Positions 7,881-59,951 of a stretch of 64,000 bases of DNA are shown piece by piece; positions within the stretch are counted from its first letter, which is position 1; each line of letters begins with the position of its first letter. The stretch is from Mustelus asterias (Eukaryota). The position numbers were made by a program, and so were the translations under genes. The notes below the pieces were generated by a model, which worked only from the letters and a program-made list of their open reading frames with translations, was not told where the DNA came from and did not search any database. The DNA is taken from positions 23,002,001 through 23,066,000 of the forward strand of contig NC_135808.1 of NCBI RefSeq assembly GCF_964213995.1, read 5' to 3'.

Positions 7881-7944
7881 ATGAGGGAAGCAGCAATGAT
7901 TGGACTGATAGAGCTGGTCCTTCTGTGTGGAGAGGTGTCTGCAG
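7881..7944 (+). CDS. Gene A exon 1, leader [21 protein letters not shown]
   Basis: ATG followed by a hydrophobic stretch and a CAG|GTGAGT donor; identical in all three paralogs. Confidence 0.85.
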
Positions 7945-10900
7945 GTGAGTGATGGGGTGTGAGAGGGGCAATGCCAGGCTGGGTAATGGGGCATTAACCC
8001 TGGGTCAGTGAGTGATGGGATGTGAGAGGGGCAATGCCAGGCTGGGTACTGGGGCGTTAACCCTGGGTCAGTGAGTGATGGGGTGTGAGAGAGGCAATGC
8101 CAGGCTGGGTGGAGGTCTTGCTCTCGGTTTGGAATCAGTGTTTGGGGTTCATGCCCTGATCTCTGTGTGTGTGTGTGTGTGTGTGTGTGAGGGTGTTGGT
8201 GTTTTTAGGGTGTCTATCCTGAATTCTCTCTCTCTCTATTTCAGGCTCTCACTCTCTCCGGTATTTCTTCACGGGAATGACTCCGATCCCGGGTTTCCCG
8301 GAGTTTGTGGTTGTCGGTTCTGTGGACGGTGTCCAGTTTGTTGTGTACGACAGCGATCGGAGGGAGCTGATCCCCCGGGAGCAGTGGATGGTGGAGAGCG
8401 AGGGTCGGGCAGCCTGGGAGCGGAAGAAGATCTTCGCACAGGAGCGGGCGATGCGTTTCAAACGTGCATTTCCACTGCTCATGTCCGACACCAACCAGAC
8501 AGGAGGTGAGTGCTCACTCTCCCAGCACCAGGGGATCCAGGTGGGAATGAGGAGAAACCCAGAGTGGATCAGGAACCGAGAGCCAGAGGCTGATTGGCTG
8601 CGATTGGAGATGTGACAGGAAATGTGATTGGCTGTGAATGTGTGGAAGGATTGTTTCCAGGGAGACTGGCTCTGATTGGCTGTGTGTGAGTGGAGGAGGT
8701 GGGGGGTGGGGGGGCGAGGGGCGGGAGCAGTTGACGGTGATTGGCTGTTAGGATGAGATTGCCCAGTGAGACTGGTTCTGATTGGCTGTTTGTGTTTCTG
8801 ATCCACAGGGATCCATGTCTGCCAGATAGTGACTGGCTGTGACCTGAGCGATGATGGGACCATGAGTGGATTCAGCCAGTACGGGTGGGATGGACATGAT
8901 GTTCTCAGCTTCGACAAGGATCACATGGTGTGGGTGACCCCGGTCACATGGGGGAAGAGCATCAAAAACTGGTGCAACCGGCAGACTGGCAACATTCAGC
9001 AATGGAAACATTACCTGGAGGTGGAGTGTATCGAGTGGCTGAGAAAATACCTGGAGTATGGACAGAGAGAATTGAGAGTCTGTGAGTGAGGGGGGAGTGA
9101 GAGTCGGTGAGTGAGGGGGGAGTGAGAGTCGGTGAGTGAGGGGGGGAGTGAGAGTCGGTGAGTGAGGGGGGAGTGAGTCGGTGAGTGAGGGGGGAGTGAG
9201 TGAGAGGGGAGTGAGAGTCGGTGAGTGAGGGGGGAGTGAGAGTCGGTGAGTGAGGGGGGGAGCGAGTGTGGGGAGAGCGAGTGTGGGGGGGGGTGAGTGT
9301 GAGCGAGGGTGGGGGGAGCGAGTGTGGGTGAGGGTGGGGGGAGCGAGTGTGGGCGAGTGTGGGGGGAGCGGGTGTGGGCGAGGGTGGCGGGCGGGTGTGG
9401 GCAAGGGTGGGGGAAGCGGGTGGGGGCGAGGGTGGGGGGGCGAGGGTGGGGGGAGCGAGAGTCGGTGAGTGAGGGGGGATTGAGAGTCGGTGAGTGAGGG
9501 GGGAGTGAGAGTCGGTGAGTGAGGGGGGAGTGAGAGTCGGTGAGTGAGGGGGGAGTGAGAGTTGGTGAAGGGGGTGATGCCGGGACTCTTATCTCGAGGT
9601 TCCTGTACTGACTCCTCTTTCTTTCTCTCTCAGTTGGCCCCGTCGTGTCCTTTACCCGTCTGGGTGATTCTAACCGGCTGTCCTGTGCCGTCACCGGGTT
9701 TTACCCTCAACCCATCGAGGTGAATCTGTGGAGAAACAGAGTGGTGATTGATGAGACTCTGTCCAGTGGGATCTTACCCAATCACGACAGCACCTACCAG
9801 ATCCGGAAATGGGTAGAGTTTGATCCAGAGGACCAGGCCGAATATTCCTGTCGGGTGGAACACAGCGGGATGAAGGAGACACTGGTGGTGATTTACGGTA
9901 AGACTGTTTCTCACTGTTAGAGAGGACCCAGCCTCAGACCAGGATCACAGGAGTGAGGGTCAGTGCTGAGCTGTCAACCCAGGATATCGAGAGAGGGAAA
10001 TAAATATTATTCAATGCGTTATATATCATGGTTCCACAGTGCAACATGATACAGCGGATCATTGGATATTGGGATCGCACTGGGCCTGGTGTAACATTGG
10101 ACACGAGTGTCGGTCTGGGCCTGGGGTATTCTGGGATATTGCAGTATAGTGGGGCCCAGTGAATCCTGGGATATTGCAGTAGTTCAGAACATGGTGTATC
10201 CTGAGATACTCTCGTAGGACACATCCCAGTGTATCCTGGGATATTGCAGCCTGTCAGGGCCTGGTGAATCCTGGGATATTACAGGAGGTTGGGCACCGTG
10301 GAATATCAGAGGATGGAGAGAGCCTGGTGTTTCCAAGAAACAATGCTTTTCACTGTGTCCCAATACATGTGACAATAATAAATCATATCAAATATTACAG
10401 TAGGACAGGACCCAGTGCATCCTGGAAGTTTACTTCAGTCAGATTAAGATCAGTATTCAGAGAAATAATGGAATTCCTTCTATTGGAGACAATTCATGAA
10501 AATCTAGAATCAAATACTATAACAATGAATATTCAGCATGGATTTTGAAATGGAAAATCTTGTTTTACTCCACTTAGTGAATTTTTTGAGGATGTAACAG
10601 AGGGAATAGACAATGGAAATGTAATAGATATAATATCATATAATTTTTTTAATGTAATAGAAAAGGGGGTTCGTGATGGACTGATTGACAAGGTGAAAGC
10701 ATGTGGAGTTAGGGGATGAGTGACAGAATGGATCACTCACTGACTTTGGGAGAGAAAGCAGAGAGTGTGAGTAAAGGGTGTTTCAGAGTTACAGAAAGTG
10801 TTCCACAAGGATCAGTGCTGGGATCACCGCTGTTCACAAGTTACACTCCATAACTTGGATATTGGAATCAAAAATACCATTTCTTAATTTGCAGATAACA

Positions 10901-13010
10901 CCAAATTGGGGGAATTATTTGATATTGAGGAGAAGTGTATTAAATTAATAGGACATGAATAAACTTGAACAAATAGTTGGTGAATAAAGTTCAGCACAGA
11001 TAAACGTGAAGTATTTTTCAGTTAATGATGAATAGGGAGGGTTGAGGAACAAAGGGATCTTGATGTACAAATACACCAATCAGTAAACATAGAGTTACAG
11101 GTTAGACAATAAACAAAATACAATCGAAAACCAGGGTTGATTTCTCGAGGGATAGAATTGTAAAGTAGGGATTTTATTGCTAAACCTGCATCAAACCTTG
11201 GTTAGACCACATTTAAAGACCGAGTGCAGTTCCGGTCACCATTTCATACAAAGGATATAGAGTCAGGGGAGAGAGTGTCGAGAAGATTTACAGAGATGAT
11301 TCCAGAAATGAGTGGGTGGACATCTCAGGAAAGGATTGACCGGCTGGGTCTCTGCTCTCGGGAAAACAGAAGGCTGAGGGTTGATTTAATCGAGGATTTA
11401 AAATTAGGGAAGTTTTTTTTATAGAGCGGACACATCGAGAGTGTTCCTCTTGTGGGAAGAGCATATCCAGTGGCCATCAATACAAGAAACCCAATGGGGA
11501 ATTCATGAGAAACCTCTTCACCCAAAGAGTGATGAGAATGTGGAGCTCGCTGCTACAGGGAGTGGCTGAACTGAACAGTATAGTTTAAGGGGAGGATAGA
11601 CAAGCAAATGAGGGAGAGGGGAATAGAGTTAAAATGGTCGAATTAGATGAGGAATAATGGGAGGAGCCTCAGGTGGAACATTAACACCAGCATCAATAGA
11701 TGGGCTGAAAGGCCATTTTCTATGTTGTATATCCTGTGTTTCCTGATTCACTCTCTCTCTGATTCACTCCCACATTTCTCTTTCTTTCTCTCTGATTCAC
11801 TCTCTGATTCTGTCTCTCTGATCTTTCTCTGTCTCTCATTCTCTCTCTTCCTCACTCTTAGTTGCTCATCCTCTCTCTCATTCTCTCCCACTCGCTCACA
11901 TTCTATTTCACTCTGATTCTCACTTTTCCCTCTCCCTGATTCACTCAGTCTCTCTGATTCTCTCTCTCTAACAGAACCAAAGTCTCGCTCCCAGGTTGCT
12001 GTTACTGTCGGGATTGTGGTCGGGGTCCTCGTGCTCATCGCTCTCATCATTGTGGCTGTCGTCATCTACAACAAGAAAGGTAGGAATTGGAGGGAAAAGA
12101 GCGGTGGGTGAACTGTAGTGGATCCAGGCAGTCCGGGAGGCTGGAATTGATTCGTGCCATGACTAGCCTTTCGAATCATTTCATAATGATGGATGTCAGA
12201 GCCACCGGATGACAGCTCACTGGGGGCAGGGATTCTGGGAGAGTATTCCAGGGTGGCGGTGGCTCAGGCTGTGGGTCTCAGGTTGGTGTGGGGGTGGGGA
12301 GGGGGTGGGTGGGCGGGTGGAAGAGTTGCAGGGTTGGGATAGGGACAGTAAGGGGCTCATGATAAAGGGGGAGTGTCTGAGAATTGTGGGAAGGGCCACA
12401 AATTGGATGAGGACTTCAGCGTATCAGTGAGGGCTCAGGTAACAGTGAGGGTCTAGGGACAGGAACCGGAGTGTGGGTCCAGGGTCAGCGTGTGAGTGAG
12501 GGTCCAGGGTCAGGGTGGGAGTGAGGGTCTCTGGTTGTGGTGGGAGTGAGGGTTCAGAGTTGTGTTGTAGGGGCTCAGTGCGAGTGAGAGTTCCAGCCTC
12601 TGTCTCTGATTTTCTCTCAGTCTCGTCTCTCACTGAGCATTCCATGTTTTACAGGGAGAGGGAAGAGCAACTACAATCCTGCAAATAGTAAGCTGATCAT
12701 CAAACATTGTCCCTGTGCAACTGTGTACATGATTGTTCATTCTGTTTCAAATATAGTGTGTGCGTGTGCGTGTGCGTGCATCGTGCGTTTCTGTGTGGGT
12801 GTGTGGGCTTCTGTGTGTCGCCGTTAGTATGGGTGTGTGAGAACCTCTTTCTCTGTGTCTGTCTGTCTATGTCTCTCTCATTCTCTCATTATCATATCCA
12901 CAGTCTCTGCCTCTGTCTCTCTGATGTTGAACAATGTTTTAACACCTCTTCTTCCTTTAACAGCTTCTGATGATGGGGATTCCTCATCCAGATCCTCCAC
13001 AAGTACCTGA
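7881..13010 (+). CDS. Non-classical MHC class I heavy chain gene A, intact; exons 7881-7944, 8245-8505, 8809-9081, 9634-9897, 11975-12079, 12655-12687, 12964-13010 (1047 nt, 348 aa; alternative in-frame ATG at 7896)
   Basis: All introns are GT-AG and phase 1. The spliced ORF gives leader, alpha1 GSHSLRYF...NQTG, alpha2 with C101/C164, Ig-C1 alpha3 ([10 protein letters not shown]...YSCRVEHS), TM and a tail with YNPA. Loss of Y59, R84, T143, K146 and W147 equivalents indicates non-classical. Confidence 0.93.
7945..8110. repeat. 63-bp tandem repeat starting at the intron-1 donor (also 25838-26000 and 44737-44830)
   Basis: gtgagtgatggg recurs at 7945, 8008 and 8071. Confidence 0.9.
8245..8505 (+). 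CDS. Gene A exon 2, MHC class I alpha1
   Basis: 261 nt, GSHSLRYFFTG...VDGVQFVVYDSD...NQTG; polypyrimidine acceptor. Confidence 0.95.
8809..9081 (+). CDS. Gene A exon 3, MHC class I alpha2
   Basis: 273 nt, HVCQIVTGCD...GWDGHD...ECIEWLRKYLEYG. Confidence 0.95.
9082..9570. repeat. About 25-bp G-rich minisatellite, gene A intron 3
   Basis: gtgagtgaggggggagtgagagtcg units. Confidence 0.95.
9634..9897 (+). CDS. Gene A exon 4, alpha3 Ig C1 domain
   Basis: 264 nt, C1-set motifs [13 protein letters not shown] and YSCRVEH. Confidence 0.95.
10470..11740 (+). mobile_element. Old degenerate CR1 in intron 4 (homologous at about 34320-35300)
   Basis: PQGSVLG and FADNTK remnants, LVRPH-like segment. Confidence 0.75.
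11975..12079 (+). CDS. Gene A exon 5, connecting peptide and transmembrane
   Basis: EPKSRSQVAVTVGIVVGVLVLIALIIVAVVIYNKK; AG/GT bounded, 105 nt. Confidence 0.92.
12655..12687 (+). CDS. Gene A exon 6, cytoplasmic (GRGKSNYNPAN)
   Basis: 33-nt phase-1 exon with a class I-type YxxA motif; conserved in gene B. Confidence 0.85.
12964..13010 (+). CDS. Gene A exon 7, Ser-rich cytoplasmic end and stop
   Basis: TSDDGDSSSRSSTST-stop; paralogous exon at 36921-36967. Confidence 0.8.
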
Positions 13011-13805: not shown

Positions 13806-15895
13806 AAGAAGAAAGAATAAAGAGCAATACAGCACAGGAACAGGCCCTTCGGCCCTCCAAGCCCGTGCCGCTCCCTGGTCCAAACTCGACCATTCTTTTC
13901 TATCCCTCCATTCCCACTCCGTTCATATGGCTATCTAGATAAGTCTTAAACATTCCCAGTGTGTCCGCCTCCACCACCTTGCCTGGCAGCGCATTCCAGG
14001 CCCCCACCACCCTCTGTGTAAAATATGTCCTTCTGATATCTGTGTTAAACCTCCCCCCCTGCCTTCACCTTGAACCTATAACCCCTCGTGAACGTCACCA
14101 CCGACCTGGGGAAAAGCTTCCCACCGTTCACCCTATCTATGCCTTTCATAATTTTATACACCTCTATTAAGTCTCCCCTCATCCTCCGTCTTTCCAGGGA
14201 GAACAACCCCAGTTTACCCAATCTCTCCTCATAACTAAGCCCCTCCATACCAGGCAACATCCTGGTAAACCTCCTCTGCAGGCTCTCCAAAGCCTCCACG
14301 TCCTTCTGGTAGTGTAGTGTGGCGACCAGAACGGGACGCAGTATTCCAAATGTGGCCGAACCAACGTTCTATACATCTGCAACATCAGACGCCAACTTTT
14401 ATACTCTATGCCCCGTCCTATAAAGGCAAGCATGCCATATGCCTTCTTCACCACCTTCTCCACCTGTGACGTCACCTTCAAGGATCTGTGGACTTGCACA
14501 CCCAGGTCCCTCTGCGTATCTACACCCTTTATGGTTCTGCCATTTATCGTATAGCTCCTCCCTACATTATTTCTACCAAAATGCGTCACTTCGCATTCAT
14601 CAGGATTGAACTCCATCTGCCATTTCTTGGCCCAAATTTCCAGCCTATCTATATCCTTCTGTTGCTTCTGACAATGCTCCTCACTATCTGCAAGTCCTGC
14701 CAACTTTGTGTCGTCCGCAAACTTACTGATCACCCCAGTTACACCTTCTTCCAGATCGTTTATATAAATCACAAACAGCAGAGGTCCCAATACAGAGCCC
14801 TGCCGAACACCACTAGTCACAGGCCTCCAGCCAGAAAAAGACCCTTCCACTACCACCCTCTGTCTTCTGTGACCAAGCCAGTTCTCCACCCATCTAGCCA
14901 CCGCCCCCTTTATCCCATGAGATCCAACCTTTTTCACCAGCCTATCATGAGGGATTTTTTAAAACGCTTTACTAAAGTCCATATAGACCACATCCACGGC
15001 CCTTCCCTCGTCAACCATTCTGGTCACTCCTTCAAAAAACTCCACCAGGTTAGTGAGGCATGACCTCCCTCTCACAAAACCATGCTGACTATCATTAATG
15101 AGTTTATTCCTTTCTAAATGCGCATACATACTATCTCTAAGAATCTTCTCCAACAACTTCCCCACCACGGACGTCAAGCTCACCGGCCTATAGTTACCCG
15201 AGTTATCCTTCCTACCCTTCTTAAATAATGGGACCACATTAGCTATCCTCCAATCCTCTGGGACCTCACCTGCGTCCAGTGACGAGACAAAGATTTTCGT
15301 CAGAGGCCCAGCGATTTCATCTCTTGTCTCCCTGAGCAGCCTTGGATAGATTCCATCAGGCCCTGGGGATTTGTCTGTCTTTATATTCTCCAACAAACCT
15401 CACACTTCCTCCCTTATAATGGAGATTTTCTCTAACGGTTCAACATTCCGCTCCGAGACACTCCCAGTCAACACATCCCTCTCCTTTGTGAATACCGACG
15501 CAAAGTATTCATTTAGGATCTCCCCTACTTCTTTGGGCTCCAAGCATAATTCCCCACTTTTGTCCCTGAGAGGTCCGATTTTTTTCCTGACAACCCTTTT
15601 GTTCCTAACGTATGAATAAAATGCCTTGGGATTCTCCTTAATCCTGTCTGCCAAGGACATTTCGTGACCCCTTTTTGCCCTTATAATTCCCCGTTTGAGT
15701 TCTTTCCTACTTTCTTTGTACTCCTCCAGAGCTCCCTCCGTTTTTAGCTACCTGGACCTAACATACGCCTCTCTTTTCTTTTTGACCAGTCCCTCAATTT
15801 CCCTGGTTATCCACGGTTCTCGAATCCTACCCTTCCTATCCTTTTTTACAGGCACATGCCTGTCCTGTAGCCCTAACAACTGTTCCTTAAAAGAC
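13806..15895 (-). mobile_element. CR1-type LINE, about 2.1 kb, relatively young
   Basis: KSPGPDGIYPR, NYRPVSLTS, QHGF, DFSKAF, QGSVLGPLLF and FADDTK motifs. Confidence 0.95.
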
Positions 15896-16325
15896 TGGTG
15901 TTTGGGGCTCCGATGGGTTTTGCTGGTGTTTGGGGGTCAGATGGATTTTGCTGGTGTTTGGGGTCTGATGGGATTGGCTGGTGTTTGGGGCTCTGATGGT
16001 TTTTGCTGGTGTTTGGAATTATGATGGGTTTAACTGGTGTTTGGGGCTCTGATGGGTTCAGCGGGTGTTTGGGGCTCTGATGGGTTTAGCTGGTGTTTGG
16101 GGCTCTGATGGGTTTAGCTGGTGTTTGGGGATCTGATGGGTTTTGCTGGTGTTTGGGGCTGTGATGGGTTTAGCTGGTGTTTGGGGCTCTGATGGGTTTA
16201 GCTGGTGTTTGGGGGTCTGATGGGTTTTGCTGGTGTTTGGGGCTCTTGTGCGTTTAGCTGGTGTTTTGGGGGTTTGATGGGTTTTGCTGGTGTTTGGGGG
16301 TCTGATGGGTTTTGCTGGTGTTTGT

Positions 16326-17242
16326 GGTCACAGAGTCATAGAGGTTTACAGCATGGAAACAGGCCCTTCGGTCCAACTTGTCCATGCAGCCCTTATATTT
16401 TTTTAAACACCCCGAAACTAATCCCAATTGCCCGCATTTGGCCCATATCCCTCTATGCGCATCGTACCCATGTAACTATCTAAATGCTTTTTAAAATATA
16501 AAATTGGACCCGCCTCTACTACTATCTCTGGCAGCTTGTTCCAGACACTCCCTATCCTCTGTGTGAAAAAATTGCACCTCCTGGACACTTTTATATCTCT
16601 CCCCTCTCACCTTAAACCTATGCCCTCGAGTTTTAGACTCCCCGACCTTTGGGAAAAGATATTGCCTCTCTACCTTGTCTATGCCCCTCATTATTTTATA
16701 GACCTCTATAAGGTCACCCCTTAGCCTCCTACACTCCAGAGAAAAAAGTCCCAGTCTATTCAGCCCCTCCTCATAACTCAATCCATCAAGTCCCGGTACC
16801 ATCCTAGTAAATCTTTTCGGCACTCTTTCTAGTTTAATAATATCCTTTCTATAATAGGGTCACCAGAATTGCATACAGCATTCCAAGTGTGGCCTTACCA
16901 ATTCCTTGTACAACTTCAACAAGACGTCCCAACTCCGTATTCAATGTTCTGACCAATGAAACCAAGCATGCCGAACGCCTTCTTCACCACTCTGTCCACC
17001 TGTGACTCCACTTTCAAGGAGCTATGAACATGTACCCCTAGATCTCTTTGTTCTGTAACTCTCCCCAATGCCCGACCATTAACTGAGTAACTGCTGCCCT
17101 GGTTCAATCTACCAAAATGCATCACCTCGCAGTTGTCTAAATTAAACTCCATCTGCCATTTGTCAGCCCACTGGCCCAATTGATCAAGATCCCGCTGCAA
17201 TTGGAGATAACCTTCCTCACTGTCCACCATGCCACCAATCTT
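16326..17242 (-). mobile_element. CR1-type LINE 3' fragment
   Basis: LQRDLDQLGQWADKWQMEFN; same family as 29560-30740. Confidence 0.9.
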
Positions 17243-18004
17243 GGTCTGATGGGTTTTGCTAGTGTTTGGGGTCTGCTGGGTTTAGCTGGTGTTTGGAGGT
17301 CTGATGGAATTTGCTGCTGGTGTGTGGTTGGAATGTTGAAGGATAGAATATTTATGACTGAGAGCGAGGCCATTCAGCCCATCATATCCCTTCCTGTTCA
17401 TGAAGAACTCTCCTGCTTAATCTCACCTCCTGTACTCGATCTGTAGCTCTGTCGATCACAGCTCTTCATATCGACGTCCAAGAATTGATTCAATGTGGTG
17501 AGAGTTTCTGCCTGTACCATCCTTTCAGACAGTGCTTCAGCTGTCGTCTGTCTGGTGTTGTTACAATTCTAGCAAAGCCATTCTGCTGTCTGTCTCAACT
17601 GATGAAAGAAAAGCATGTTATGTACCTTCTTTACCATGTAATTAACATGTCCTGAAAACTTTCCCAATCTGTGGACATGCACTCCTGGATCCCTCTGTTC
17701 CTCCACATTACTCATTATCCTCCCAGTTATTAGGGATTCCCTTTGCCTTGTTCATCCTCCCGAAATCCATCACGCCTCACTGCTCCGGACTGAATTCCAT
17801 TTTCCAATGTTCTTCCCAACTGCCCAGGCCATCTCTATCTTCCTGCAATCTGAAGCTTTCCTCTTCACTGACACCCACACAGATAATATTTGTACCTCTG
17901 TAAACTTCTTTATCATTCCTGCTGCATTTGAATCTAAATGATTCACATGAACTACAAAAAGTGAGGGTGTGAGTGCTGGGTTCTGTGGAACCCCCACTGG
18001 TAAC

Positions 18005-18140
18005 AAGAAGTCTTGTTTAGGTCTGAGAAGTCTCACAACATCAGGTTAACATCCAATTCGGAATCACGAGCTTTCGGAGAACTGCTCCTTCGTCAGATGA
18101 GTGATGGTCAGTCCAACGCCGGCATCTCCACATCATGGAC
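18005..18140. mobile_element. Short Penelope terminal-repeat remnant in inverted arrangement
   Basis: Minus-strand terminal sequence followed by plus-strand gtccaacgccggcatctccacatcat; empty site in the paralog at about 38810. Confidence 0.75.
18064..18100 (-). ncRNA. Minimal hammerhead ribozyme (Penelope remnant)
   Basis: Reverse strand reads tcat-CTGACGA-aggagcagttctcc-GAAA-gcTC-gtga; one stem II mismatch. Confidence 0.65.
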
Positions 18141-22872: not shown

Positions 22873-23175
22873 ATGGGCAGCACGATGGCAAGTGGTTAGC
22901 ACTGCTGCCTCATTGCACAAGGGCCCCGGATTCAATGCCGGCTTCGGGTCACTGTCTGTGCGGAGTTTGCATGTTCTCCCCGTATCTGCGTGTATTTCCT
23001 CCGGGTGCTCCGGTTTCCTCCCACAGTCTGAAAGACGTGCTGCTCAGGTGCATTGGCCATGCTAAATTCTCCCTCAGTGTACCCGAACATGCACCGCAGT
23101 GTGGCAACTAGGGGATTTTCACTGTAACTTCATTGCAGTGTTAATGTAAGCGTACTTGTGACTAATAAATAACTT
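22873..23175 (+). mobile_element. tRNA-derived SINE (HE1-like)
   Basis: gggcagcacgatggcaagtggttagcactgctgcctca A-box head, ggattcaatgcc B-box-like. Confidence 0.8.
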
Positions 23176-44163: not shown

Positions 44164-44580
44164 CCCGGCAACTGATGATGTTAGAATCATAGAATGAGCC
44201 CATTCAAGTCAGCACCAAATCTCAGACAGAGCATCTTTACCCAGGCCCCATCCCTGTTACCCTACATATTTACCATGGCTAATCCCCTATCACACACATC
44301 TTTAGACAGTAAGGGGCAATTTAGCTTGGCCTGTCCATCTAACCTGCACATCTTTGGCGTGCAGGAGGAAGCAGGAGTACCAGGAGGATACCCACACAGG
44401 GAGAATGTACAAACTCCACACAGACAGTCACCCAAGGCTGAAATTGACCCTGGGTCCCTGGCGCTGTGAGGCAGCAGTGCTAACCACTGAGCAAACATAA
44501 TATAACCAGTTGTATTTACCTGATTGGAGAATTCTGAATATTGAGGAAGTTTGCCAACCTGTTTTGTGTCTAATCAGATT
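44164..44580 (+). promoter_or_regulatory. Disrupted promoter modules of gene C
   Basis: Distal X (44164-44177) is separated from Y (44520-44527) by a SINE; the proximal X-Y is deleted at about 44565. Confidence 0.65.
44184..44498 (-). mobile_element. tRNA-derived SINE inserted in the gene C promoter
   Basis: Reverse of cagtggttagcactgctgcctcacagcgccagggaccc; absent at the homologous gene B site. Confidence 0.85.
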
Positions 44581-44672
44581 GCGGCTTCGTGTGAACAGAA
44601 AAAGACAGAAGGAACAAGTTGAGAAGATCCCCTTTCTTTGGAAAAGAGTTTCCTCCAAAGGTTTCTCCCAAC

Positions 44673-47600: not shown

Positions 47601-50600
47601 AGATTATCCAGAGGATTAGGATAAAGGATGCACCTAATGAATTAACTAAATTCAGTCTATTTGAATTAAGTTTTGTCATGAGATAAGTGGACCACTTAAA
47701 TTCATCAAGGAAAAGTTGGTGAGTCAGCATTCTGGGACTATGTTGGACTATGTGTCAAACTTTATGGAGAGATTAACTAGGGCTGGGAAGTTCATGAGAC
47801 TGCAATTAAAGGTGGCACAGCATGTGAAGAAAAAAAGTGGACAAGAAAAGTTCCTCGTTTTGCTCGCAGGGATAAGGTGTTAGCATTATTAGCAGTGCTA
47901 GGTGAACATTTAACAGCTAGGTTTAGTGGGCCTTATCAAATAGGGTGGCATGGTGGCACAGTCGTTAGCACTGCTGCCTCACAATGTCAGGAACCGGAGT
48001 TCAATTCCAGCCTCAGGTGACTGTCTGAATGGAGTTTGCACTTTTTCCCGTGTCTGCGTGAGTTTCCTCTGGGTGCTCCGGTTTCCTCCCACAGTCCAAA
48101 GGTGTACAAGAGAGGTTGATTGTCCATAATAGCTTGTCCCCTTCGTGTCAGGGGGATTAGTGGGGTCGATGCAATGATGAGGTCGAGGTGGGATTGTTGT
48201 TGGTGCAGGCTCGATGGGCCAAGTGGCCTCCTTCTGCACTATAGGGCTTCAATGAAATTGAAAGAAAATTGAATAAGATGATTTTTAAAAATTCATTCAT
48301 AGGACATGGGCATGGCTGCTGGCCAGCATTTATTGCCCATACCTAGTTGCCCTTGAGAAGGTGATAGTGAGCTGCCTTCTTGAATCGCTGCAGTCTATGT
48401 GCTGTAGGTTGACCCACACTGCCATTAGAGAGGCAATTCCAGGATTTTGACACAGCGACTGTGAAGGAATGGCGATACATTTCCAAGTCACCATGGTGAG
48501 TAGCTTGGAGGGGAACTTGCAGGTGGTGGTGTTCCCATGTAACTGCTGCCCTTGTCCTTCGAGATGGATGTGGTTGTGGGTTTGGAAGGTGCTGTCAAGG
48601 ATATTTGGTGAATTGTTGCAGTGCATCTTGTAGATAGTACACACTATTGCTATTGAGCGTCAGTGGTGGAGAGAGTGGATGTTTGTGGATATGGTACCAA
48701 TCAAGTGGGCTGCTCTGTCCAGGATGGTGTCAAGCTTCTTGAGTGTTGCTGGACCTCATCCCATCCAGGCAAGTGGGGAGTATTCCATCATACTCCTGAT
48801 TTCTGCCTTGTAGATGGTGGGCAGACTTTGGGGAATCAAGAGGTGAGTTACTCGTCACAGTATTCCCAGCCTCTCACCGGCTCTTGTGTTTATGTGGCGA
48901 GTCCAGTTGAGTTTCTAGTCAATAGTAATGCCAAGGATGTTGACAGTGGGGGATTCAGTAATGGTAACACCATTGAATGTCAAGGGGTGGTTGTTAGAGT
49001 GTCTCTTATTCATGATGATAATTGCCTGACATTTGTGTTGCTCGAATGTTACTTGCCACTTGTCAGCCGAAGCTTGGATATTGTCCAGATCTTGTTGCAT
49101 TTGAACATGGACTGCTTCAGTATATGTGGAGTCATGAGTGGTACTGAAAATTGTGCAATCGTCAGCAAACATCCCCACTTCTGACCTGATGATGGGGGGA
49201 AGATCATTGATGAAGGAGTTGAAGATGGTTGGGCTGACGACACTACCCCAAGGGATTCATAAGAACATAAGAACCAGGAGCAGGAGTAGGCATCTGGCCC
49301 CTCGAGCCTGCTCTGCCATTCAATAAGATCATGGGTGATCTTCTCGTAGACTCAGCTCCACTTAGCCGCCAGCTCACCATAACCCTTAATTCCTTTACTG
49401 TTCAAAAATGTATCTATCCTTGCCTTAAAAACATTCAATGAGGTAGCCTCAACTGCTTCACTGAGCAGGGAATTCCACAGATTCAAACCCATTGTGTGAA
49501 GAAGTTCCTCCTCAATTCAGTCCGAAATCTGCTTCCCCTTATTTTGAGGCTATGCCCCCTCATTCTTGTTTCACCCGCCAGTGGAAAAAACTTCCCTGCT
49601 TCTATCTTATCTATTCCCTTCATAATCTTATATGTTTCCTTCAGATCTCCCCTCATTCTTCTGAATTCCAATGAGTATAGCCCCAGTCTACTCAGTCGCT
49701 CCTCAAAAGCCAACCCTCTCAACTCTGCAATCAACCCTAGTGAATCTCCTCTGCAACCCCTCCAGTGCCAATATATCCTTTCTCAAGTCAGGAGACCAAA
49801 ACTGTACACAGTACTCCAGGTGTGGCCTCACCAGCACCTTATACAGCTGCAACATCACCTCGCTGTTTTTCAACTCCAATAAAGGACAACATTCCATTTG
49901 CCTTATTAATTACCTGCTCCACCTACAAACCAACTCCTTGAAATTCTGCACAAGGACACCCAGGTCCCTCTGCACAGCAGCATGCTACAATTTTTTACCA
50001 TTTAAATAATAGTCCATTTTGCTGTTATTCCTACCAAAATGGATGACTTCCCATTTACCAACACTATACTCCATCTGCCAAACCCTCGCCCACTCACTTA
50101 GCCTATCTATATCCCTTTGCAGACTTTCAGCGTCCTCTGCACACTTTGCTCTGCCACTCATCTTAGTGTCATCTGTGAATTTTGACACACTACACTTAGT
50201 CCCCAACTCCAAATCATCTCTGTAAATTGTAAACAATTGCGGTCCCAACACTGAACCATGAGGCACACCACTAGTCACTGATCGCCAACCAGAAAAACAC
50301 CAATTTACCCTCACTCTTTGCTTTCTGTTAGTTAACCAATCCTCTATCCATGCTAGTACATTACCCGTAATACCGTGCACCTTTATCTTGTGTAGCAGTC
50401 TTTGGTGGGTCACCTTGTCAAATGCCTTCTGGAAATCCAGATACACCACGTCCACAGGTTCCCCATTGTTCATTCCTGCACAGATGTCCTGGAGCTGAGA
50501 TGACTGACCCTCCACAATCACATTCCTATGTGCCAGGTATGACTCCAACCAGCGGAGAGTTTGCCACCTGATACCCATTGATTTCAGTTTCGCTAGAGTT

Positions 50601-52478
50601 CCTTGATGCCACACTTGGCCGAATGTGGCCTTGATATCAAGGGCTGTCACTTTCACCTCACCTCTGGAATTCAGCTATTTTGTCCATGTTTGAACCAAGG
50701 CTGTAATGAGGTCAGGAGCTGAGTGACCCTGGTGAAACCCAAACTGGGCGTCACTGAGCAGGTTATCATTAAGCAGGTGCTGCTTGATAGTACCCGTGGA
50801 GAATTATATGACAAGAACGTTGGATCGAAGGAAATCTCACAGAGTGTTTCCTGAGAATATACTCAAGCAATATTTTGATCGGGAAGGAAAGCAGAAGGGG
50901 GATGCATTAGTTATGACAATGCAGAGTGAAGAAATAAGTCCAGATGATTCTGCATTTGACATTCTTCAAATTAAATTGGATAATGTGGAAGTAATCGGAA
51001 ATTGAAATAAACGATTGAGTTACCTTCTGGAGGAAAATCAAAATGGCCTGAAAGAGTTACTACAACCACATGGAGAGATATGTGGGAATAAACTGGGAAG
51101 GACTAAAATAATTATGCACAACGTAGATGTAAGAAATGCTGTTCCAATTAAGCAATATCTGTACAAGCTTAACCCTCCAAAGTTGGCATAGGTTCAAAAG
51201 GAGATTGAAAGCATATTTAAAAATTACATAATTGAAGTGAGTTGGAGAGAGTGCAGCTCACCCGTAGTGAGGGTTCCAAAATGAGATGACACCCAACAAT
51301 TCTGTGTGGACTATAGGAAAGTTAATGCAGTTACAAAATAAGATTCATATCCCATTCCTTTCTTGGGAGACTGCATTCAGAAGGTGGGACAAGTGACTTT
51401 TATTTCCAAACTTGACTTACTAAAAGGATACTGGCGGGTACCTTTATCCGAAAGGGCAAAGGAGATTTTGGCTTTCATGACAAAAAATGGTCAGTACCAG
51501 TTTAAAATCATGCCATTTGAAATGAAAAATGCACGAGCCACATTTCAAACATTAACTAATAAGGTCATTTCTGGACTACCTAATTGTGCTGTGTACATAA
51601 ACAAACTGGTGGTTTTCAGACAGATGTGGAAGGAACATTTGGAGCACCGAGCGGAATTGTTCAATTGGCTTCAGGATGCAGGCTTGGTGGTAAACTTGGC
51701 TAAGAACGAGTTTACAAAAACCAAAGTCACATTCATAGTCCATACAATTAGACATGGATGGAAGGCCCTACGGTCGGTGAAAACAAAGGTTATTGGGGAG
51801 TGCCCAATACTGCCGGTGAAAAGTGAAGTACTGCATTCTTGGACCTGGATGGTTTTTATAGGAATTTTGTGCCAAACATTTGCATTATGGTTGCTGCACT
51901 GACTGACTTGCTGAAAAAACATGCAAAATTTCAGTGGACGGTGAATGTCAGAGGGCATTTGGCCGCCTGAATAATGTGTTAACCACTGCACCTGTGTTGG
52001 CAAGAACAAATTATGCAAAACCATTCAAGATGGCCATTGATGCGAGTGATGTGGCTGTTCTATTACAAGAAGATGACAAAAGGATATAAAGACCAATTGG
52101 GTACTTTTTTCTGGAAAACGAAATAACCATCAAAAGAGATTCAACCATTGAGAAAAGAAACATTGAGTTTGGTGTTGGCATTGCAACATTTTAACGTTTA
52201 TGTTGTCAGCAATTCATCTGAGACAGTTATTTACACTGATCATAATCCATTGACGTCTCTGGAGAAATTTAGAGATCAAAGTGAAAGGCTCTTTAGATGG
52301 AGTTTATTATTACAGCCATTTTATATGAGAATTACAATGTGGCAGAAAGTGAGAATGTGATTGCTGATGCTTCATCAACAATTTCATGAAAGAGGAAGGA
52401 ATATTCAATGTCGGAAGAGAATGACTGTACTGGACAATAGAACTATTATACTTGCATGCATTGATTTACTAGAATGTG

Positions 52479-52519
<41 letters not shown>

Positions 52520-55500
52520 ACTAATAGTGTGAAACTTGAAGTTATGAAAAATGAAGCCATTTTTTATTGCTGTTTTTTTTAAGGGGGAGGTGTGAGGATA
52601 CTGTGCCTTTAAGAAATGTATCTATATCATGTTTCTTGTGAAGGGATTGTTTTCAACTTCAGCTCTGATTACAGTGCCGATTTGCCCACAAACAGCAGCC
52701 CACATGCTGAGAGTGCAGAAGCATAATTTATCCCAGATAATGTTTCTTTTTGCTTTTATCTGAGCTGTTTTGTTTATTTTTTTGGGTTGTCCCTGGGGTT
52801 TCAGAGTAAGGTTTAATTCGGTTGATTGACAAGAGGAAGTTATATGCTGATGGGAAGAGCTAAGCTTACAGGAAGACAAGCAGACAGTTGTCTGCCTGGA
52901 CCTGCCAGAAGCATTATTCTCTCTCTCTTTCTCTAAAGACTGTAGTTTGGGACCTGCTCGAAAATAGGTCTCTCTCCAGAGGTGTTTTGGAGGCTGGAGA
53001 TACCCAGCTCAGATACCCACATGTAAGGCTGTTTGCTGACTGATTTTCAGGAGGTGTTTATGTCTATGAGGAATATTGCTTAAATTGGAACAATTAGAAA
53101 TAATCCAGCAGTTAAGAGTTGTATCTTGTCACATGTAAGAATTTCAGTTGGTAAAAGTTGAGGCTATTTCTTTTTGTTATAGTTAAACTGTACTGTTAAA
53201 TAAAGTTTGTTTTGACAAAAGCTTCCTAGTGGGTCATTGGAATGACACCTCGAGTGAAACACTTTATCCTCACACGAATGTCAAAGTCAAAAAAGAGAGT
53301 TGGGGTCTGGTCTAAATTCATAACATGGAGTTTCTAATCTGGTGCCCAACGGTGGATGCTGGTGTTTTGTGTTCATACCTTGATCTCTCTCTGTTTTTCA
53401 GGTTCTCACTCTCTCCGGATTTCCGTCACGGGAATGACTCCGATCCCGGGTTTCCCGGAGTTTGTGCTTGTCGGTTATGTGGATGATCTCCGGGTTGTTG
53501 TGTACGACAGCGATCGGAAGGAGCTGATCCCCCAGGAGCAGAGGATGGTGGAGATCGACGGACATGAGGCTTGGGAACAGAAGAAGATTCTCGCACAAGA
53601 GCTGGGGATGATTGTCAAATTGTCTTTTCCGGTCTTCATTTCTCTGTCCCAGCAGACAGGAAGTGAGTCCTCACTTTCCCACCACTCGGGGGTGCAGGTG
53701 GGAAGAAACCAAGAATGGATCAGGAACTGGGAGCCAGAGGCTGATTGGCTACGATTGGATATGTGACAGCAAATTTGATTGGCGATCAATGAGTGGAGGG
53801 AATGTATCCAAGAGAGACTGGCTCGGATTGGCTGTGTGTGGAGGACATGAGATCCACTTAGTGTAACTGCCGCTGATTGGCTTTCTATGTGGTGGGAGGT
53901 GCCTCGCTTGATTTGATTGGCTTTTGATAGAGTGGGTCTGGCTTCTGAGTGGAACTGGCTTGGATTGGCTGTGGGGGTGGTATCTCACATTGGGACTGAC
54001 TCTAATTGGCTGTTTGTGATCCACAGGAATCCATGTTTTACAGATGATGACTGGCTGCAATCTGAGGGATGATGGGACCACGAGTGCATTCAACCGGATT
54101 GGGTGGAATGGACAGGATGTGCTCAGCTTCGACAAGGATCACATGGTGTGGGTGACCCCAGTGACCTGGGGAGAGATCATCAAAAACAATCTTGACAGGG
54201 ATACTGCCCAGAATGAGCGATTCAAACAATTACTGGAGGTGGACTGTATTGAGTGGCTGAGGAAATCCCTCGAGTTCGGACAGAGTGAACTGACAGCTGG
54301 TGAGTGAGGGGGGAGCGAGAATTGGTGAGTGATGGGGGGAGCGAGAGTCGGTGAGTGAGGGGGGGAGTGAGAGTCGGTGAGTGAGGGGGGAGTGAGAGTC
54401 GGTGAGTGAGGGGGGAGCGAGAGTCGGTGAGTGAGGGGGGGAGCGAGAGTCGGTGAGTGAGGGGGAGCGAGAGTCGGTGAGTGAGGGGGGAGCGAGAGTT
54501 GGTGAGTGAGGGGGGAGCGAGAGTCGGTGAGTGAGGAGGGAGCGGGAATCAGTGGGTCAGGGTGAGTGAGGGGGGAGTGAGTGGGAATCAGTGGGTGAGG
54601 TGGGAGTGAGTGGGAATCGGTGGGTGAGTGAGAGGGGGGTGGGAATCAGTGGGTGAGGGGGACTGAGTCATTGAGTGACGCGTGACAGATAGAGAGAAAG
54701 GTAGAAAACACCGAGTGCATTTTGCAGAAAGCTGGAGGGAGATACTTATTTTCTATCAGCTCCCAGACTGCAATTTCCAGACAGAGAAAGGGAGAGAGAA
54801 AGAGCTGCTCCTTCGTTTTTCAAATTGAAACAGCAACTGCCTGCCTGTCCCTCTGTAACCCAAACTGCTCCCATTGACATGATTTCATTCTTGCCAATCA
54901 ACCTAATTACACCCGACTCTGAAACACCAGGAGAAAACCACAACATTTCACAAAACTGCATTAGCTCAGATTAAAACAAACACCCCAATACTTAGGACCA
55001 ATTACTCTTCCGCATTATGTTGTGAAGTTTATGTTTTTAAAATGATAACACAATTGTAACAATTGGAGTTTTCTAAACAGCATTCCATTGGAATCGTGCT
55101 TTATTCGGTTTGTTAATTGTTTTGTTAACCTGATTGCTGTTAGTTAGATAAATAAAGTGTTACTTGTTGCTTTACAGAGGGAATCTCAGGTAGTTATTTT
55201 GATTTGACCACTAAAAGTTGCTGAAGAGCAGATATTAACCCTTCTCACACACACTTTAACAGATTATGAAGGGACGTAATGCTCTTTCAGTGGCTGAGTA
55301 TCAGTTCTCAGAGAGGAAATCAACTTCCACTTCGTAACAATTATCAGCATGTGGGCTGCTGCAGTAATCAGAGTTGACATATAAAACAGTCCCTTTAGAA
55401 GAAATGCAAATACATTCCTTAAAAGCACAGTTCTGACACAGGGGACTTAGAGTGAGTGAGGGAGGGAGGGAGTGAGATTCGGTGAGTGAAGGAGGTGAGA

Positions 55501-58500
55501 GAGCCGGTGAGTGAGGGGGGGGAGTGAGAGTTGGTGAGAGAGGGGGGAGCGAGAGTCGGTGAGTGAGAGGGGAGTGAGAGTCGGTGAGTGAGCGGGAGTG
55601 AGAGTCGGTGAGTGAGGGGGGAGTGAGAGTCGGTGAGTGAGGGGGGAGTGAGAGTCGGTGAGTGGGGAGGGGAGTGGGACTCTCACTCCCGCTCACTCAC
55701 CGACTCTCACTCCTCCCTAACTCACCCACTCTCACTCCCCCCTCACTCAACGACTCTCACTCCCCCCTCACTCACCGACTCTCACTCCCCCCTCTCTCAC
55801 CGACTCTCACTCCCCCCCCTCACTCACCGGCTCTCTCGCCTCCTTCACTCACTGAATCTCACTTCCTCCCTCCCTCACTCACTCTAAGTCCCCTGTGTCA
55901 GAACTGTGCTTTTAAGCAATGTATTTGCATTTCTTCTAAAGGGACTGTTTTATGTGTCAACTCTGATTACTGAGGGGAGGAGTGAGCATCGGTGAGTGAG
56001 GGGGGAGTGAGAGTCGGTGAGCGAGGGGGGAGTGAGAGTCGGTGAGCGAGGGGGGAGTGAGAGTCGGTGAGTGAGGGGGGAGTGAGAGTCGGTGAGTGAG
56101 GGGGGGAGTGAGAGTCGGTGAGAGAGGGTGGAGTGAGCGTCGGTGAGTGAGGGGGGAGTGAGAGTCGGTGAGTGAGGGTGGAGTGAGAGTCGGTGAGCGA
56201 GGGGGGAGTGAGAGTCGGTGAGTGAGGGGGGAGTGAGAGTCGGTGAGTGAGGGGGGAGTGAGAGTCGGTGAGTGAGGGGGGGAGTAAGAGTCAGTGAGTG
56301 AGGGGGGTAGTGAGAGTCGGTGAGAGAGGGTGGAGTGAGAGTCGGTGAGTGAGGGGGGAGTGAGAGTCGGTGAGTGAGGGGGGGAGTGAGAGTCGGTGAG
56401 AGAGGGTGGAGTGAGAGTCGGTGAGTGAGGGGGAATGAGAGTCGGTGAGTGAGGGGGGAGTGGGTGTCGGAGGGTGAGGGGGGAGTGAGAGTCGGTGAGT
56501 GAGGGGGGAGTGAGAGTCGGTGAGTGAGCGGGGAGTGAGAGTCGGTGAGTGAAGGGGGAGGGAGGGTCGGTGAGTGAGGGGGGAGTGAGAGTTGGTGAGT
56601 GAGGGGTGGAGTGAGAGTTCGTGATTGAGGGGGGAGTGAGAGTCGGTGAGTGAGGGGGAACTGAGTCGTTGTGCGAATGTGAGTGAGGGGGGAGTGGGAG
56701 TCGGTGAGTGAGGGGGAACTGAGTCGTTGTGCGAATGTGAGTGAGGGGGGAGTGAGAGTCGGTTAGTGAGGGGGGAGTAGGAATCAGTGGGTGAGGGAGG
56801 AGTGAGTGGGAATCGGTGAGTGAGGGGGGAGTGAGAGTCGGTGAGTGAGGAGGGAGTGAGAGTCGGTGAGTGAGGCGGGAGTGAAAGTCGGTGAGTGAGG
56901 CAGGAGTGAGATTCGGTGAGGGTGGAGGTATTGGGAATCAGTGGGTGAGTGAGGAGTGAGTGGGAATCGGTGAGTGAGGGGGGAGTGAGAGTCGGTGAAT
57001 GAGGGGGGAGTGAGAGTCGGTGAGTGAGGGGGGAGTGAGAGTCGGTGAGTGAGGGGGAATGAGAGTCGGTGAGTGAGGGGGGAGTGGGAGTCGGAGGGTG
57101 AGGGGGAGTGAGAGTCGGTGACTGAGGGGGGAGTGAGAGTCGGTGAGTGAGGGGGGAGTGAGAGTCGGTGAGTGAGCGGGGAGTGAGAGTCGGTGAGTGA
57201 AGGGGGAGGGAGGGTCGGTGAGTGAGGGGGAAGTGAGAGTCGGTGAGTGAGGGGCGGAGTGAGAGTTGGTGATTGAGGGCGGAGTGGGAGTCGGTGAGTG
57301 AGGGGGGAGTGAGAGTCGGTGAGTGAGGGGGAACTGAGTCGTCGTGCGAATGTGAGTGAGGGGGGAGTGAGAGTCGGTGAGTGAGGGGGGAGTGAGAGTC
57401 GGTGAGTGAGGGGGGAGTGAGAGTCGGTGAGTGAGGAGTGAATGAGAATCGGTTAGTGAGGTGGGAGTAGGAATCAGTGGGTGAGGGAGGAGTGAGTGGG
57501 AATCGGTGAGTGAGGGGGGAGTGAGAGTCGGTGAGTGAGGAGGGAGTGAGTGTCGGTGAGTGAGGCGGGAGTGAGATTCGGTGAGGGTGGAGGTAGTGGG
57601 AATCAGTGGGTGAGGGGGGAGCGAGAGTGGGTGAGTGAGGGGGGAGCGAGAGTGGGTGAGTGAGGGGGGAGCGAGAGTTGGTGAGTGAGGAGGGAGCGAG
57701 AGTCGGTGAGTGAGGAGGGAGCGGGAATCAGTGGGTCAGGGTGAGTGAGGGGGGAGTGAGTGGGAATCAGTGGGTGAGGTGGGAGTGAGTGGGAATCGGT
57801 GGGTGAGTGAGAGGGGGGTGGGAATCAGTGGGTGAGGGGGACTGAGTCATTGAGTGACGCGTGACAGATAGAGAGAAAGGTAGAAAACACCGAGTGCATT
57901 TTGCAGAAAGCTGGAGGGAGATACTTATTTTCTATCAGCTTCCAGACTGCAATTTCCAGACAGAGAAAGGGAGAGAGAAAAGAGCTGCTCCTTCCTTTTT
58001 CAAATTGAAACAGCAACTGCCTGCCTGTCCCTCTGTAACCCAAACTGCTCCCATTGACATGATTTCCTTCTTGCCAATCAACCTAATTACACCCGACTCT
58101 GAAACACCAGGAGAAAACCACAACATTTCCCAAAACTGCATTCGCTGAGTTTAAAACAAACACCCCAATAATTAGGAGCAATGATTCTTCCGCATTATAT
58201 TGTGAAGTTTATGTTTTTAAAATGATAACACAATTGTAAAAATGCTCGGAGCAGAAGGCATTGCATGGGCTGTTTAAAAAAAGGTTTTTATTTCTGTACT
58301 GAAGAGTAGGCTGTACACTGCTGTACACTGTACATTGTATCATGAGCCTGGGCAGTAACTTTAAACAATCAGTTTAAATTAGGGATTTGAATAGCAGCAG
58401 CCTCTCAGATTTGAATTTGATGTTTTGATAAATAGTGGTAAACCAATCCTATTGTGGGGATTTTTGATATGTCATCAGGGGTATAAAAGCCACACTCCTG

Positions 58501-59951
58501 CCTCTGCCAGCAAATGCATCTGCCACGGTTTACAGCTTGAGAGAGAGAGGGAGAGAGAGACAGACAGCAACTGTCTCTAACAGAGTGACAGCCACATTTA
58601 TGTCTTAAAAGAAAGCCTCATCTCAAGCGTAAAGGTACAAACGGAAGTTAGTGGAAACAGAAGATAAAGACAGAGCATTCCGGAAGATGACAAAACTGGT
58701 TAAAATTTTGAGAGTGACTAGAAATTCAAATTGTTTTGTAAAAAATGGGAATTGGATTTATCTAAAGAGCATTCCATTGGAATCGTGCTTTATTCGGTTT
58801 GTTAATTGTTTAGTTAACCTGATTGCTGTTAGTTAGATAAATATTGTGTTACTTGTTGCTTTACAGAGGGAATCTCAGGTAGTTATTTTGATTTGATCAC
58901 TAAAAGTTGCTGAAGTGCAGATATTAAACCTTCTCACACACATTTTAACAGATTATGAAGGGACGTAATGCTCTTTCAGTGGCTGAGTATCAGTTCTCAG
59001 AGAGGAGATCAACTTCCACTTCGTAACAATCATCAGCATGTGGGTTGCTGCAGTCATCAGAGTTGACATATAAAACAGTCCCTTTAGAAGAAATACAAAT
59101 ACATTCCTTAAAGGCACAGTTCTGACACGGGACTTAGAGTGAGTGAGGGAGGGAAGGAGGGAGAGTCGGTGAGTGAGGGGGGAGTGAGAGTGGGTGAGTG
59201 AGGGGGGAGTGAGGGGGGCGTGAGAGTCGGTGAGTGAGGGGGGCGTGGGAGTCGGTGAGTGAGGGCGCGTGAGAGTCGGTGAGTGAGGGGGGAGTGAGAG
59301 TCGGTGAGTGAGGGGGGAGTGAGAGTCAGTGAGTGAGGGGGGAGTGAGAGTCGTGAGTGAGGGGGGAGTGAGAGTCGTTGAGTGAGGGGTGAGTGAGAGT
59401 GGGTGAGTGAGAGTGGGTGAGTGAGGGAGGAGTGAGAGTCTTTGAGTGAGGGGGGAGTGAGAGTCTTTGAGTGAGGGGGGAGTGAGAGTCGGTGAGTGAG
59501 GGGGGAGTGAGAGTCGGTGAGTGAGGGGGGAGTGAGAGTCGGTGAGTGAGGGGGGAGTGAGAGTGGGTGTGTGAGCGGGGAGTGAGAGTCGGTGAGTGAG
59601 TGGGGGAGTGAGAGTCGGTGAAGGGGGTGATGCCGGGACCCTCCATCTCGAGGTTCCTGTACTGACTCCTCTTTCTTTCTCTCTCAGTTGCCCCGATCGT
59701 GTCCTTTACCCGTCTGGGTGATTCTAACCAGCTGTCCTGTGCCGTCACTGGGTTTTACCCTCAAGCCATCGAGGTGAATCTGTGGAGAGATGAAGTGGTG
59801 ATTGATGAGACTCTGTCCAGTGGGATCTTACCCAATCACGACAGCACCTATCAGATCCGGAAATGGGCAGAGTTTGATCCAGAGGACCAGGCCGAGTATT
59901 CCTGTCGGGTGGAACACAGCGGGATGAATGAGACACTGGTGGTGATTTACG
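44673..59951 (+). CDS. Non-classical MHC class I gene C, 3'-partial; exons 44673-44736, 53402-53662, 54027-54299, 59688-59951
   Basis: Four open exons of the expected lengths (64/261/273/264) with GT-AG sites; no TM exon found before the window end. Confidence 0.88.
45225..53351 (+). mobile_element. Gmr1-like Gypsy LTR retrotransposon (decayed) in gene C intron 1; LTRs about 45225-45969 and 52591-53351
   Basis: Two diverged direct LTRs, PPT aagggggagg at 52581-52590, integrase YHPESQG (about 47520) upstream of [11 protein letters not shown] (about 51410) and RNase H YTDHNPL (about 52230). Confidence 0.85.
48290..50775 (-). mobile_element. Nested LINEs: a CR1 (about 49258-50472) inside another CR1/L2-group LINE
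   Basis: FADDCTIF and ALDIKATF in the outer element; [11 protein letters not shown] and FTDDTK in the inner. Confidence 0.8.
53402..53662 (+). CDS. Gene C alpha1 exon
   Basis: [11 protein letters not shown]...[21 protein letters not shown]. Confidence 0.92.
54027..54299 (+). CDS. Gene C alpha2 exon
   Basis: [11 protein letters not shown]...[13 protein letters not shown]. Confidence 0.92.
54300..59622. repeat. Expanded 25-bp minisatellite in gene C intron 3, containing duplicated nested solo LTRs and an inversion
   Basis: Arrays at 54300-54660, 55450-57840 and 59135-59622; block 54650-55470 is duplicated at 57830-59160. Confidence 0.9.
58198..59028 (+). mobile_element. Solo LTR (family B) nested in a minus-strand LTR related to the intron-1 element; internally deleted copy at 55018-55339, fragment at about 32630-33023
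   Basis: TG...CA with ATTA target duplication in the 55018-55339 copy; TATA-like and AATAAA signals. Confidence 0.75.
59688..59951 (+). CDS. Gene C alpha3 exon
   Basis: About 90% aa identical to gene A alpha3 (9 differences in 88 by hand count). Confidence 0.93.

Follow-up and report, generated by a model that had tools for sequence, protein, structure and literature searches.

A probable UBA-lineage array of MHC class I genes in Mustelus asterias, with a subfamily predicted to hold hydrophobic ligands

How do neighbouring genes built on one scaffold come to carry chemically different grooves? [quoted passage not shown] An earlier note on this DNA had described a non-classical family with a shared scaffold, and its counts were reproduced. 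The 64-nt leader exons (starts 7881, 25774 and 44673) are identical at 64/64 nt in A, B and C. The amino acid identity between A and C is 90.8% in alpha3 and 65.1% in alpha1, close to the earlier hand counts of about 90% and 66%, and 64.4% in alpha2. At the eight positions that anchor peptide termini (HLA-A2 7/59/84/143/146/147/159/171, with the numbering compared by eye with the HLA-A2 rows of the alignment), gene A reads YADIWCYY and keeps 3/8 anchors, gene B reads YSRIKWYY and keeps 6/8, and gene C reads IALINLLS and keeps 0/8, as had been claimed. All eight are kept by nurse shark UAA and by a gene at 41.59 Mb of the same contig (C8 below).

We consider it probable, judging from sequence comparisons, that the window samples an array of about 56 UBA loci in which DNA exchange keeps the leader, alpha3 and transmembrane (TM) exons alike and the grooves diversify, with a hydrophobic, lipid-like ligand predicted for the C types. 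Few ligands of shark class Ib molecules are known, and an array with common leader, alpha3 and TM exons and with 0-6 anchors offers a ready series for finding the substitutions that turn a peptide groove into a non-peptide one.

Lineage and size of the array

Because identity, tree position and synteny agree, the window genes are almost certainly members of the elasmobranch UBA lineage. A 28-row tree unites eight array types with nurse shark AAC60347 (the same protein as P0017), with horn shark AAC60348 and with four further proteins from elasmobranchs, at a support of 100/100. Supplemental File 10 of PMC10751288 gives AAC60347 the label UBA. In a 71-row tree built by a quick method, the grouping with nurse shark UBA apart from UAA has a support of 98 in the Shimodaira-Hasegawa-like approximate likelihood ratio test (SH-aLRT). 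The per-domain phylogeny that the earlier note had proposed as a check gives the same grouping in alpha1 (84-91), alpha2 (95) and alpha3 (83), in trees built without the long-branched UGA- and UDA-like rows. A and C share 51-64% of residues with nurse shark UBA in alpha1/alpha2 and 76-81% in alpha3; the corresponding values for UEA-type genes are 21-35% and 46-52%. The anchor loss is also of the UBA type: the two UBA references keep 4 and 5 anchors, the intact array loci keep 0-6/8, and Y59 is absent from all of them. Monophyly of the whole array in alpha1 plus alpha2 was neither recovered nor rejected (p-AU 0.10 in the approximately unbiased, AU, test).

The array lies between C4-like genes at C8 20.3 and 21.0 Mb (21.03-21.05) and an RXR gene at 26.06-26.07 Mb, which by its position is probably rxrb. 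PMC10751288 places UBA in a separate cluster with c4 and rxrb as its flanks, apart from the UDA/UEA cluster, which sits between brd2/b2m and rxrb. On C8, UEA-, UDA-, UFA- and UGA-like genes occupy 31-34 Mb and 40 Mb, and UAA-like genes follow at 41.6-43.4 Mb, with lineages assigned by eye against the same supplemental file. The UDA/UEA-type cluster at 31-34 Mb is thus on the opposite side of the rxr gene from the array. UBA is described as an expanded, UAA-derived family in PMC12562908.

The non-classical, multigene character of the family, as claimed earlier, is upheld by the number of loci and by the rejection of classical UAA: forcing the array and the UAA-type genes of the same genome into one group is rejected (p-AU 0.0006), and the anchor counts of A, B and C agree with this rejection. 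The earlier assignment to UEA or to a new lineage was not sustained and now has next to no likelihood. The array is multigene and anchor-poor as UEA is said to be. One test weighs on that side as well: array and UEA as a single group is not rejected (p-AU 0.12), a result of the great length of the UEA branch. However, identity in alpha1/alpha2 is 21-36% to UEA-type genes and 51-74% to the two UBA references (alpha3: 46-52% for A and C to UEA-type genes, 76-84% to the UBA references), the UBA clade has full support, and the UEA-type genes form their own clade (100%). The UEA-type genes of this genome, matched by eye to the nurse shark 'UCA_NODE' row of the supplement, which we take to be UEA, lie at C8 32-33.6 and 40 Mb, about 8 Mb from the array and next to UDA-, UFA- and UGA-like genes.

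At least 56 loci were found at C8 21.62-24.75 Mb (3.1 Mb) by searching the genome with a single query for each of the three alpha domains, and the window holds three of these 56. Alpha1-3 are open and splice sites normal in 33 loci, a call that rests on alpha1-3, with leader and TM examined in a minority; the other 23 are broken, partial or doubtful. The 33 intact loci encode 20 distinct alpha1 plus alpha2 proteins. A, B and C are each present in four copies, spaced by about 407-410 kb, 418 kb and 1.2 Mb and differing by 0-6 nt per gene. This points to segmental duplication of recent date or, for some of the copies, to false duplicates created during assembly.

A few class I pieces on C8 stand apart. 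A lone alpha1 plus alpha2 pair with 7 anchors (L106, G000:C8:27973686-27975521) falls between UAA and UBA in the trees; the roughly 7.7 kb downstream of it yielded no alpha3. A UEA-type alpha2 plus alpha3 pair (L127, G000:C8:3662451-3663104) is separated from the UBA array by 18 Mb and from the UEA cluster by about 28 Mb. Two array loci (L100 and L103, G000:C8:23745477-23748287 and 24427607-24430420) combine a very divergent groove and one extra alpha2 codon with an array-type alpha3, and in the alpha1 and alpha2 trees their type takes a basal place in the UBA group.

Conserved frame and changing pockets

The structural exons are far more alike than the groove exons. Mean amino acid identity among the 20 types is 73% in alpha1, 76% in alpha2 and 94% in alpha3. 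The mean proportion of silent differences (pS) is 0.068 in alpha3 against 0.255 in alpha1 plus alpha2 (alpha3 being lower in 172/190 pairs), and it is 0 for leader and TM in all three window pairs. Because silent divergence is also low in alpha3, leader and TM, the likeness of the scaffold is not the work of purifying selection alone. Intron DNA adjoining alpha3 is 92-100% identical, a figure partly accounted for by the splice signals in these short flanks, and intron 2 is 76-85% identical. All 21 array rows come together in the alpha3 tree (SH-aLRT 87) and do not in the alpha1 and alpha2 trees. Our inference is that gene conversion acts around a cassette of groove exons, which itself would escape it.

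Two observations touch on this exchange. The UAA-like genes L108 and L109 (G000:C8:41592919-41593170 and 42399546-42399797) have identical alpha3 proteins and quite different alpha1 domains, so that alpha3 homogenisation seems to act on them too. A G-rich 25-bp minisatellite, which repeats the end of the alpha2 exon and its donor site, lies in intron 3 of gene A (9081-9574), where it borders divergent and homogenised DNA, and at 26995-27738 and 54299-59621. In gene C it is enlarged to 70 copies at 55971-57749 with internal duplications, and intron 3 reaches 5.4 kb. A role of this repeat in DNA exchange would be a guess.

In the grooves, change is concentrated at the ligand pockets. For the 20 distinct types, with the inserted codon of the g23745 type dropped and with 38 positions that we take to form the pockets, the ratio of replacement to silent rates (dN/dS, Nei-Gojobori) is 1.04 in the pockets, 0.35 on the helix tops, 0.36 in the rest of alpha1 plus alpha2 and 0.38 in alpha3. 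The Muse-Gaut (MG) codon model gives an omega of about 1.6 for the pockets, with twice the log-likelihood difference (2dlnL) from omega 1 being 7.3. The dN/dS check proposed in the earlier note therefore came out well below 1 outside the pockets (0.35-0.38) and at 1.04-1.6 within them. By these estimates, the frame appears conserved, and the pockets appear to change at or somewhat above the neutral rate.

The number of anchors kept by the 33 intact loci is 0 in five, 1 in one, 2 in one, 3 in eight, 4 in five, 5 in five and 6 in eight, and the g23745 type has 6 once its alpha2 insertion is allowed for in the numbering. Y7, R84, Y159 and Y171 are retained in most types. Such a range preserves one part of the earlier claim of a spectrum from peptide-like to non-peptide receptors; the other part, its peptide-like example, gene B, is broken in alpha3, and the peptide-like end of the spectrum is carried by array genes other than the B type. 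The different grooves would then bind different classes of ligand. Anchor-poor UBA members (1-2/8) also occur in zebra shark (P0031), horn shark (P0050) and sawfish (P0032). These apparently arose separately, so that groove remodelling recurs in the UBA lineage.

These patterns can be drawn together in a birth-and-death scheme. The array would grow by segmental duplication in units of about 410 kb and lose copies by mutation, and gene conversion would homogenise the exons that contact beta2-microglobulin (beta2m), CD8 and the membrane. Each intact copy would sit on the cell surface bound to beta2m and would have a fixed ligand preference of its own. Variety would come from copy number rather than from alleles, and conversion would keep the structural exons compatible. 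Copies with 5-6 anchors would bind peptides with a loosened N-terminal pocket, Y59 being absent in all copies; A-type copies would have a reshaped F end; and C-type copies would bind a lipid, a lipopeptide or some other hydrophobic ligand in place of a peptide anchored at its termini.

The C subfamily and its candidate ligands

The C subfamily comprises six full loci of three types that form one clade (SH-aLRT 100) and share 21 diagnostic residues, including I7, L70, L84, Q86, L95 and L159. They keep 0-1 anchors: Y7, Y59, R84, T143, W147, Y159 and Y171 are all replaced, mostly by aliphatic residues. Pocket hydropathy of the C types is 1.8-2.0, the top three values among 74 class I rows, compared with 0.97 for gene A and 0.61 for gene B. 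The glycan site at N86 is lost in C (Q86). A 67-bp promoter deletion is present in all four C promoters seen and takes out the motif TGACTCA, which is present in 43/43 stretches checked at non-C loci (the stretches overlap and do not stand for 43 genes). The leader lies about 9 kb upstream. In the four C loci followed that far (4/4), 13 kb or more of DNA past the TM exon showed no cytoplasmic exon, whereas one lies within 0.7 kb of the TM exon in A and B. Read-through in the window C type gives a 10-residue tail without a tyrosine motif, and C types lacking this motif might traffic differently.

Among the three C types, 20/38 pocket positions vary against 17/138 others (p 6e-7). The pocket changes comprise 27 replacement and three silent ones, and the proportion of replacement differences outside the pockets (pN 0.038) is lower than that of silent ones (pS 0.075). 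Such variation looks like that of a groove in use. The AlphaFold model of gene C keeps the class I fold, with a predicted local distance difference test (pLDDT) score of 81.5. A Foldseek search with this model returned the class I fold only, 6LUP first (52% identity) and then MR1 chains, and is uninformative about the ligand.

Outside Mustelus asterias, a C-type groove was absent from sets of 47, 37 and 3 protein matches drawn from a database that may lack close relatives. Zebra shark P0031 has L84, N146, L147 and a hydrophobic pocket (1.63) as in C, and it sits with orectolobiform UBA. An ancient C-type lineage including P0031 was considered, and forcing P0031 together with C costs 18 log-likelihood units (p-AU 0.065). 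Convergence is favoured for this likeness, although not proven. No description of a hydrophobic UBA subfamily was met in the literature searched, a search that the two main shark class Ib lineage papers fell outside.

Several points weigh against the reading of an actively diversifying array with lipid-binding C types. Some of the four near-identical segment copies, with their 0-6 nt differences per gene, could be assembly duplicates. The codon-model test holds by domain in alpha1 (2dlnL 6.3) and not in alpha2 (2.1), recombination can inflate it, and pocket dN-dS by Nei-Gojobori is not above 0 (95% interval -0.12 to 0.14). The excess of replacement changes in the C pockets is borderline (binomial p 0.045; p 0.093 in a Fisher test against the rest). 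The hydropathy score is a rough measure: nurse shark UAA reaches 0.89, near gene A, and the UEA-type rows, whose groove is reportedly hydrophobic and anchor-poor in a multigene non-classical lineage, score only -0.04 to 1.04. At positions 8, 51 and 171 the window copy of C carries S, R and S, and its two sister types carry F, W and F; these residues of the window copy, its GC donor and its missing tail exons fit decay as well. Four orphan C-type alpha2 exons contain stops, and the NCBI models of C leave the leader exon unused.

Decay is accordingly the nearest rival, which we regard as rather unlikely: the C subfamily would be a decaying or ligand-free branch with a collapsed or closed groove, and the variety of the array would mostly reflect relaxed selection in a redundant, fast-duplicating family. 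It draws on the 23/56 broken or partial loci, on the orphan exons, on C having lost its tail exons, the glycan site at N86 and a piece of the promoter, and on a Nei-Gojobori pocket ratio of about 1. However, all six full C-type loci (6/6) keep alpha1-3 open and their splice sites, and C-type change is concentrated in pockets with pN below pS elsewhere; because decay would spread changes evenly, this concentration speaks against it. That every intact copy, C included, binds peptides, with C accepting strongly hydrophobic peptides or lipopeptides held without the hydrogen bonds that classically fix the termini, is a good deal less probable still. Among solved structures, C is closest to the peptide-binding UAA (6LUP), Y7, R84, Y159 and Y171 are kept in most array types, and UBA derives from UAA according to PMC12562908; but the C types swap seven anchors together, mostly for aliphatic residues.

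For the diversifying array with lipid-like C ligands, which we prefer, the separate step that an expressed C type binds such a ligand is possible but doubtful on present sequence evidence. Equally tentative is the fuller proposal that a young UBA subfamily has turned a peptide-type groove into one binding lipid or lipopeptide, with its own promoter, loss of the tyrosine-bearing tail and three types diversifying at the pockets. If true, the conversion in C would be an independent origin of lipid presentation, and its peptide-binding sisters on a near-identical scaffold would be natural controls.

Window genes and known systems

Gene B would be a pseudogene. Its alpha3 exon (27805-28067) measures 263 nt and has a 1-nt deletion at 27966/27967, with a TGA of the original frame at 27974-27976 and a shifted-frame stop at 28041-28043, and the spliced product ends at 278 amino acids. 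Five copies in the genome carry this frameshift, and it is therefore not a read error. A living gene B, either as a membrane form without alpha3 (alpha1-alpha2-TM) made by exon skipping or as a secreted 278-residue chain, is very unlikely. The frame does stay open through TM and tail if alpha3 is skipped, alpha1 and alpha2 differ by 0-1 nt among four copies, and NCBI has modelled the 278-residue form (P0025). However, the four copies are recent duplicates, so their sameness is no sign of selection; 10 of the 12 B-type alpha2 loci are clearly broken by differing lesions and two are doubtful; and the stop lies upstream of further introns, a situation that usually triggers decay of the transcript. 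The remaining exons of gene B are the leader (25774-25837), alpha1 (26137-26397; Y7, S59, R84), alpha2 (26731-27003; I143, K146, W147, Y159, Y171), TM (35455-35559) and the cytoplasmic exons (36172-36204 and 36921-36967), the last three being open in frame. Elsewhere, three B-type loci (G000:C8:22942396, 23358221 and 24560143; L064-L066, L123) consist of alpha1 and alpha2 only, with damaged splice sites, and no alpha3 or TM exon was seen within 10 kb at the one locus checked.

Gene A is complete, and its 348-residue product equals P0004, an NCBI model from Mustelus asterias. Its proximal promoter (7660-7880) contains ATTGG/CCAAT boxes and TGACTCA, which presumably act as promoter elements. It is followed by the leader exon (7881-7944), alpha1 (8245-8505; Y7, A59, D84 and the N86 glycan site), alpha2 (8809-9081; C95, I143, W146, C147, Y159, Y171), alpha3 (9634-9897), TM (11975-12079) and cytoplasmic exons (12655-13010, as 12655-12687 and 12964-13010 with the stop). 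The extra cysteines 95 and 147 in alpha2 both occupy F-pocket positions, and both are present in 8/33 intact loci; they could pair or remain free. No RNA data set was listed as holding the gene A stretch. Of four sequencing runs examined, three cover introns and behave as DNA, and one, from another organism, holds a spliced relative at 90-95% identity and is uninformative about the window copies.

The promoter and leader exon of gene C span 44520-44736 (leader 44673-44736), the deletion having also removed one ATTGG. The leader would be spliced across an 8.7-kb intron 1 to alpha1 (53402-53662; I7, S8, R51, A59, L84 and Q86, without the glycan site), followed by alpha2 (54027-54299; L95, I116, N146, L147, L159, S171) and alpha3 (59688-59951). 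The TM exon, which has the GC donor, lies 3.1 kb past the window end (G000:C8:23069105-23069209). The intergenic and intronic DNA at 1-7000, 14000-25000, 29000-35000 and 47000-52500 is crowded with broken reverse-transcriptase pieces that we take to be of long interspersed nuclear elements (LINEs). An open reading frame of presumed GIY-YIG type lies at 4443-5228, and presumed pol remnants of long terminal repeat (LTR) type lie at 31100-32500 and 51342-51902.

Compared with known systems, the UBA lineage, its expansion into a multicopy cluster and alpha3 homogenisation are of familiar kinds; what the array adds is its C subfamily and its size. The elasmobranch UBA genes AAC60347 and AAC60348 share with the array a fully supported clade, the c4-rxr position, multiple copies and the loss of Y59. 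Against the 56 loci here, the supplement of PMC10751288 has two MHC-Ib rows for white shark and three for catshark on the far side of rxrb, which are taken to be the UBA cluster in a supplement that covers annotated genes and is without lineage labels. The concerted evolution of alpha3 (exon 4) in mammalian class Ia/Ib genes, as reported in PMC1403747, is the same in kind: alpha3 is homogenised within a species and the groove keeps its own history. The shark array differs in that the process acts among dozens of copies, all class Ib, and extends to leader and TM.

Shark UEA, with its reportedly hydrophobic, anchor-poor groove and multiple genes, resembles the C subfamily. However, it belongs to another lineage and cluster and is distant in alpha1/alpha2, so its likeness to C would be convergent. 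The nearest working analogy for C is chicken MHC-Y YF1*7.1 (PMC2998441; PMC9635633), a near-classical class I molecule with a hydrophobic, lipid-binding groove. Like C, it combines near-classical sequence and a hydrophobic groove with membership of a multigene array. Unlike C, for which the ligand is only predicted, YF1 has its ligand known from a structure, and it is no orthologue (33% identity to 3P77).

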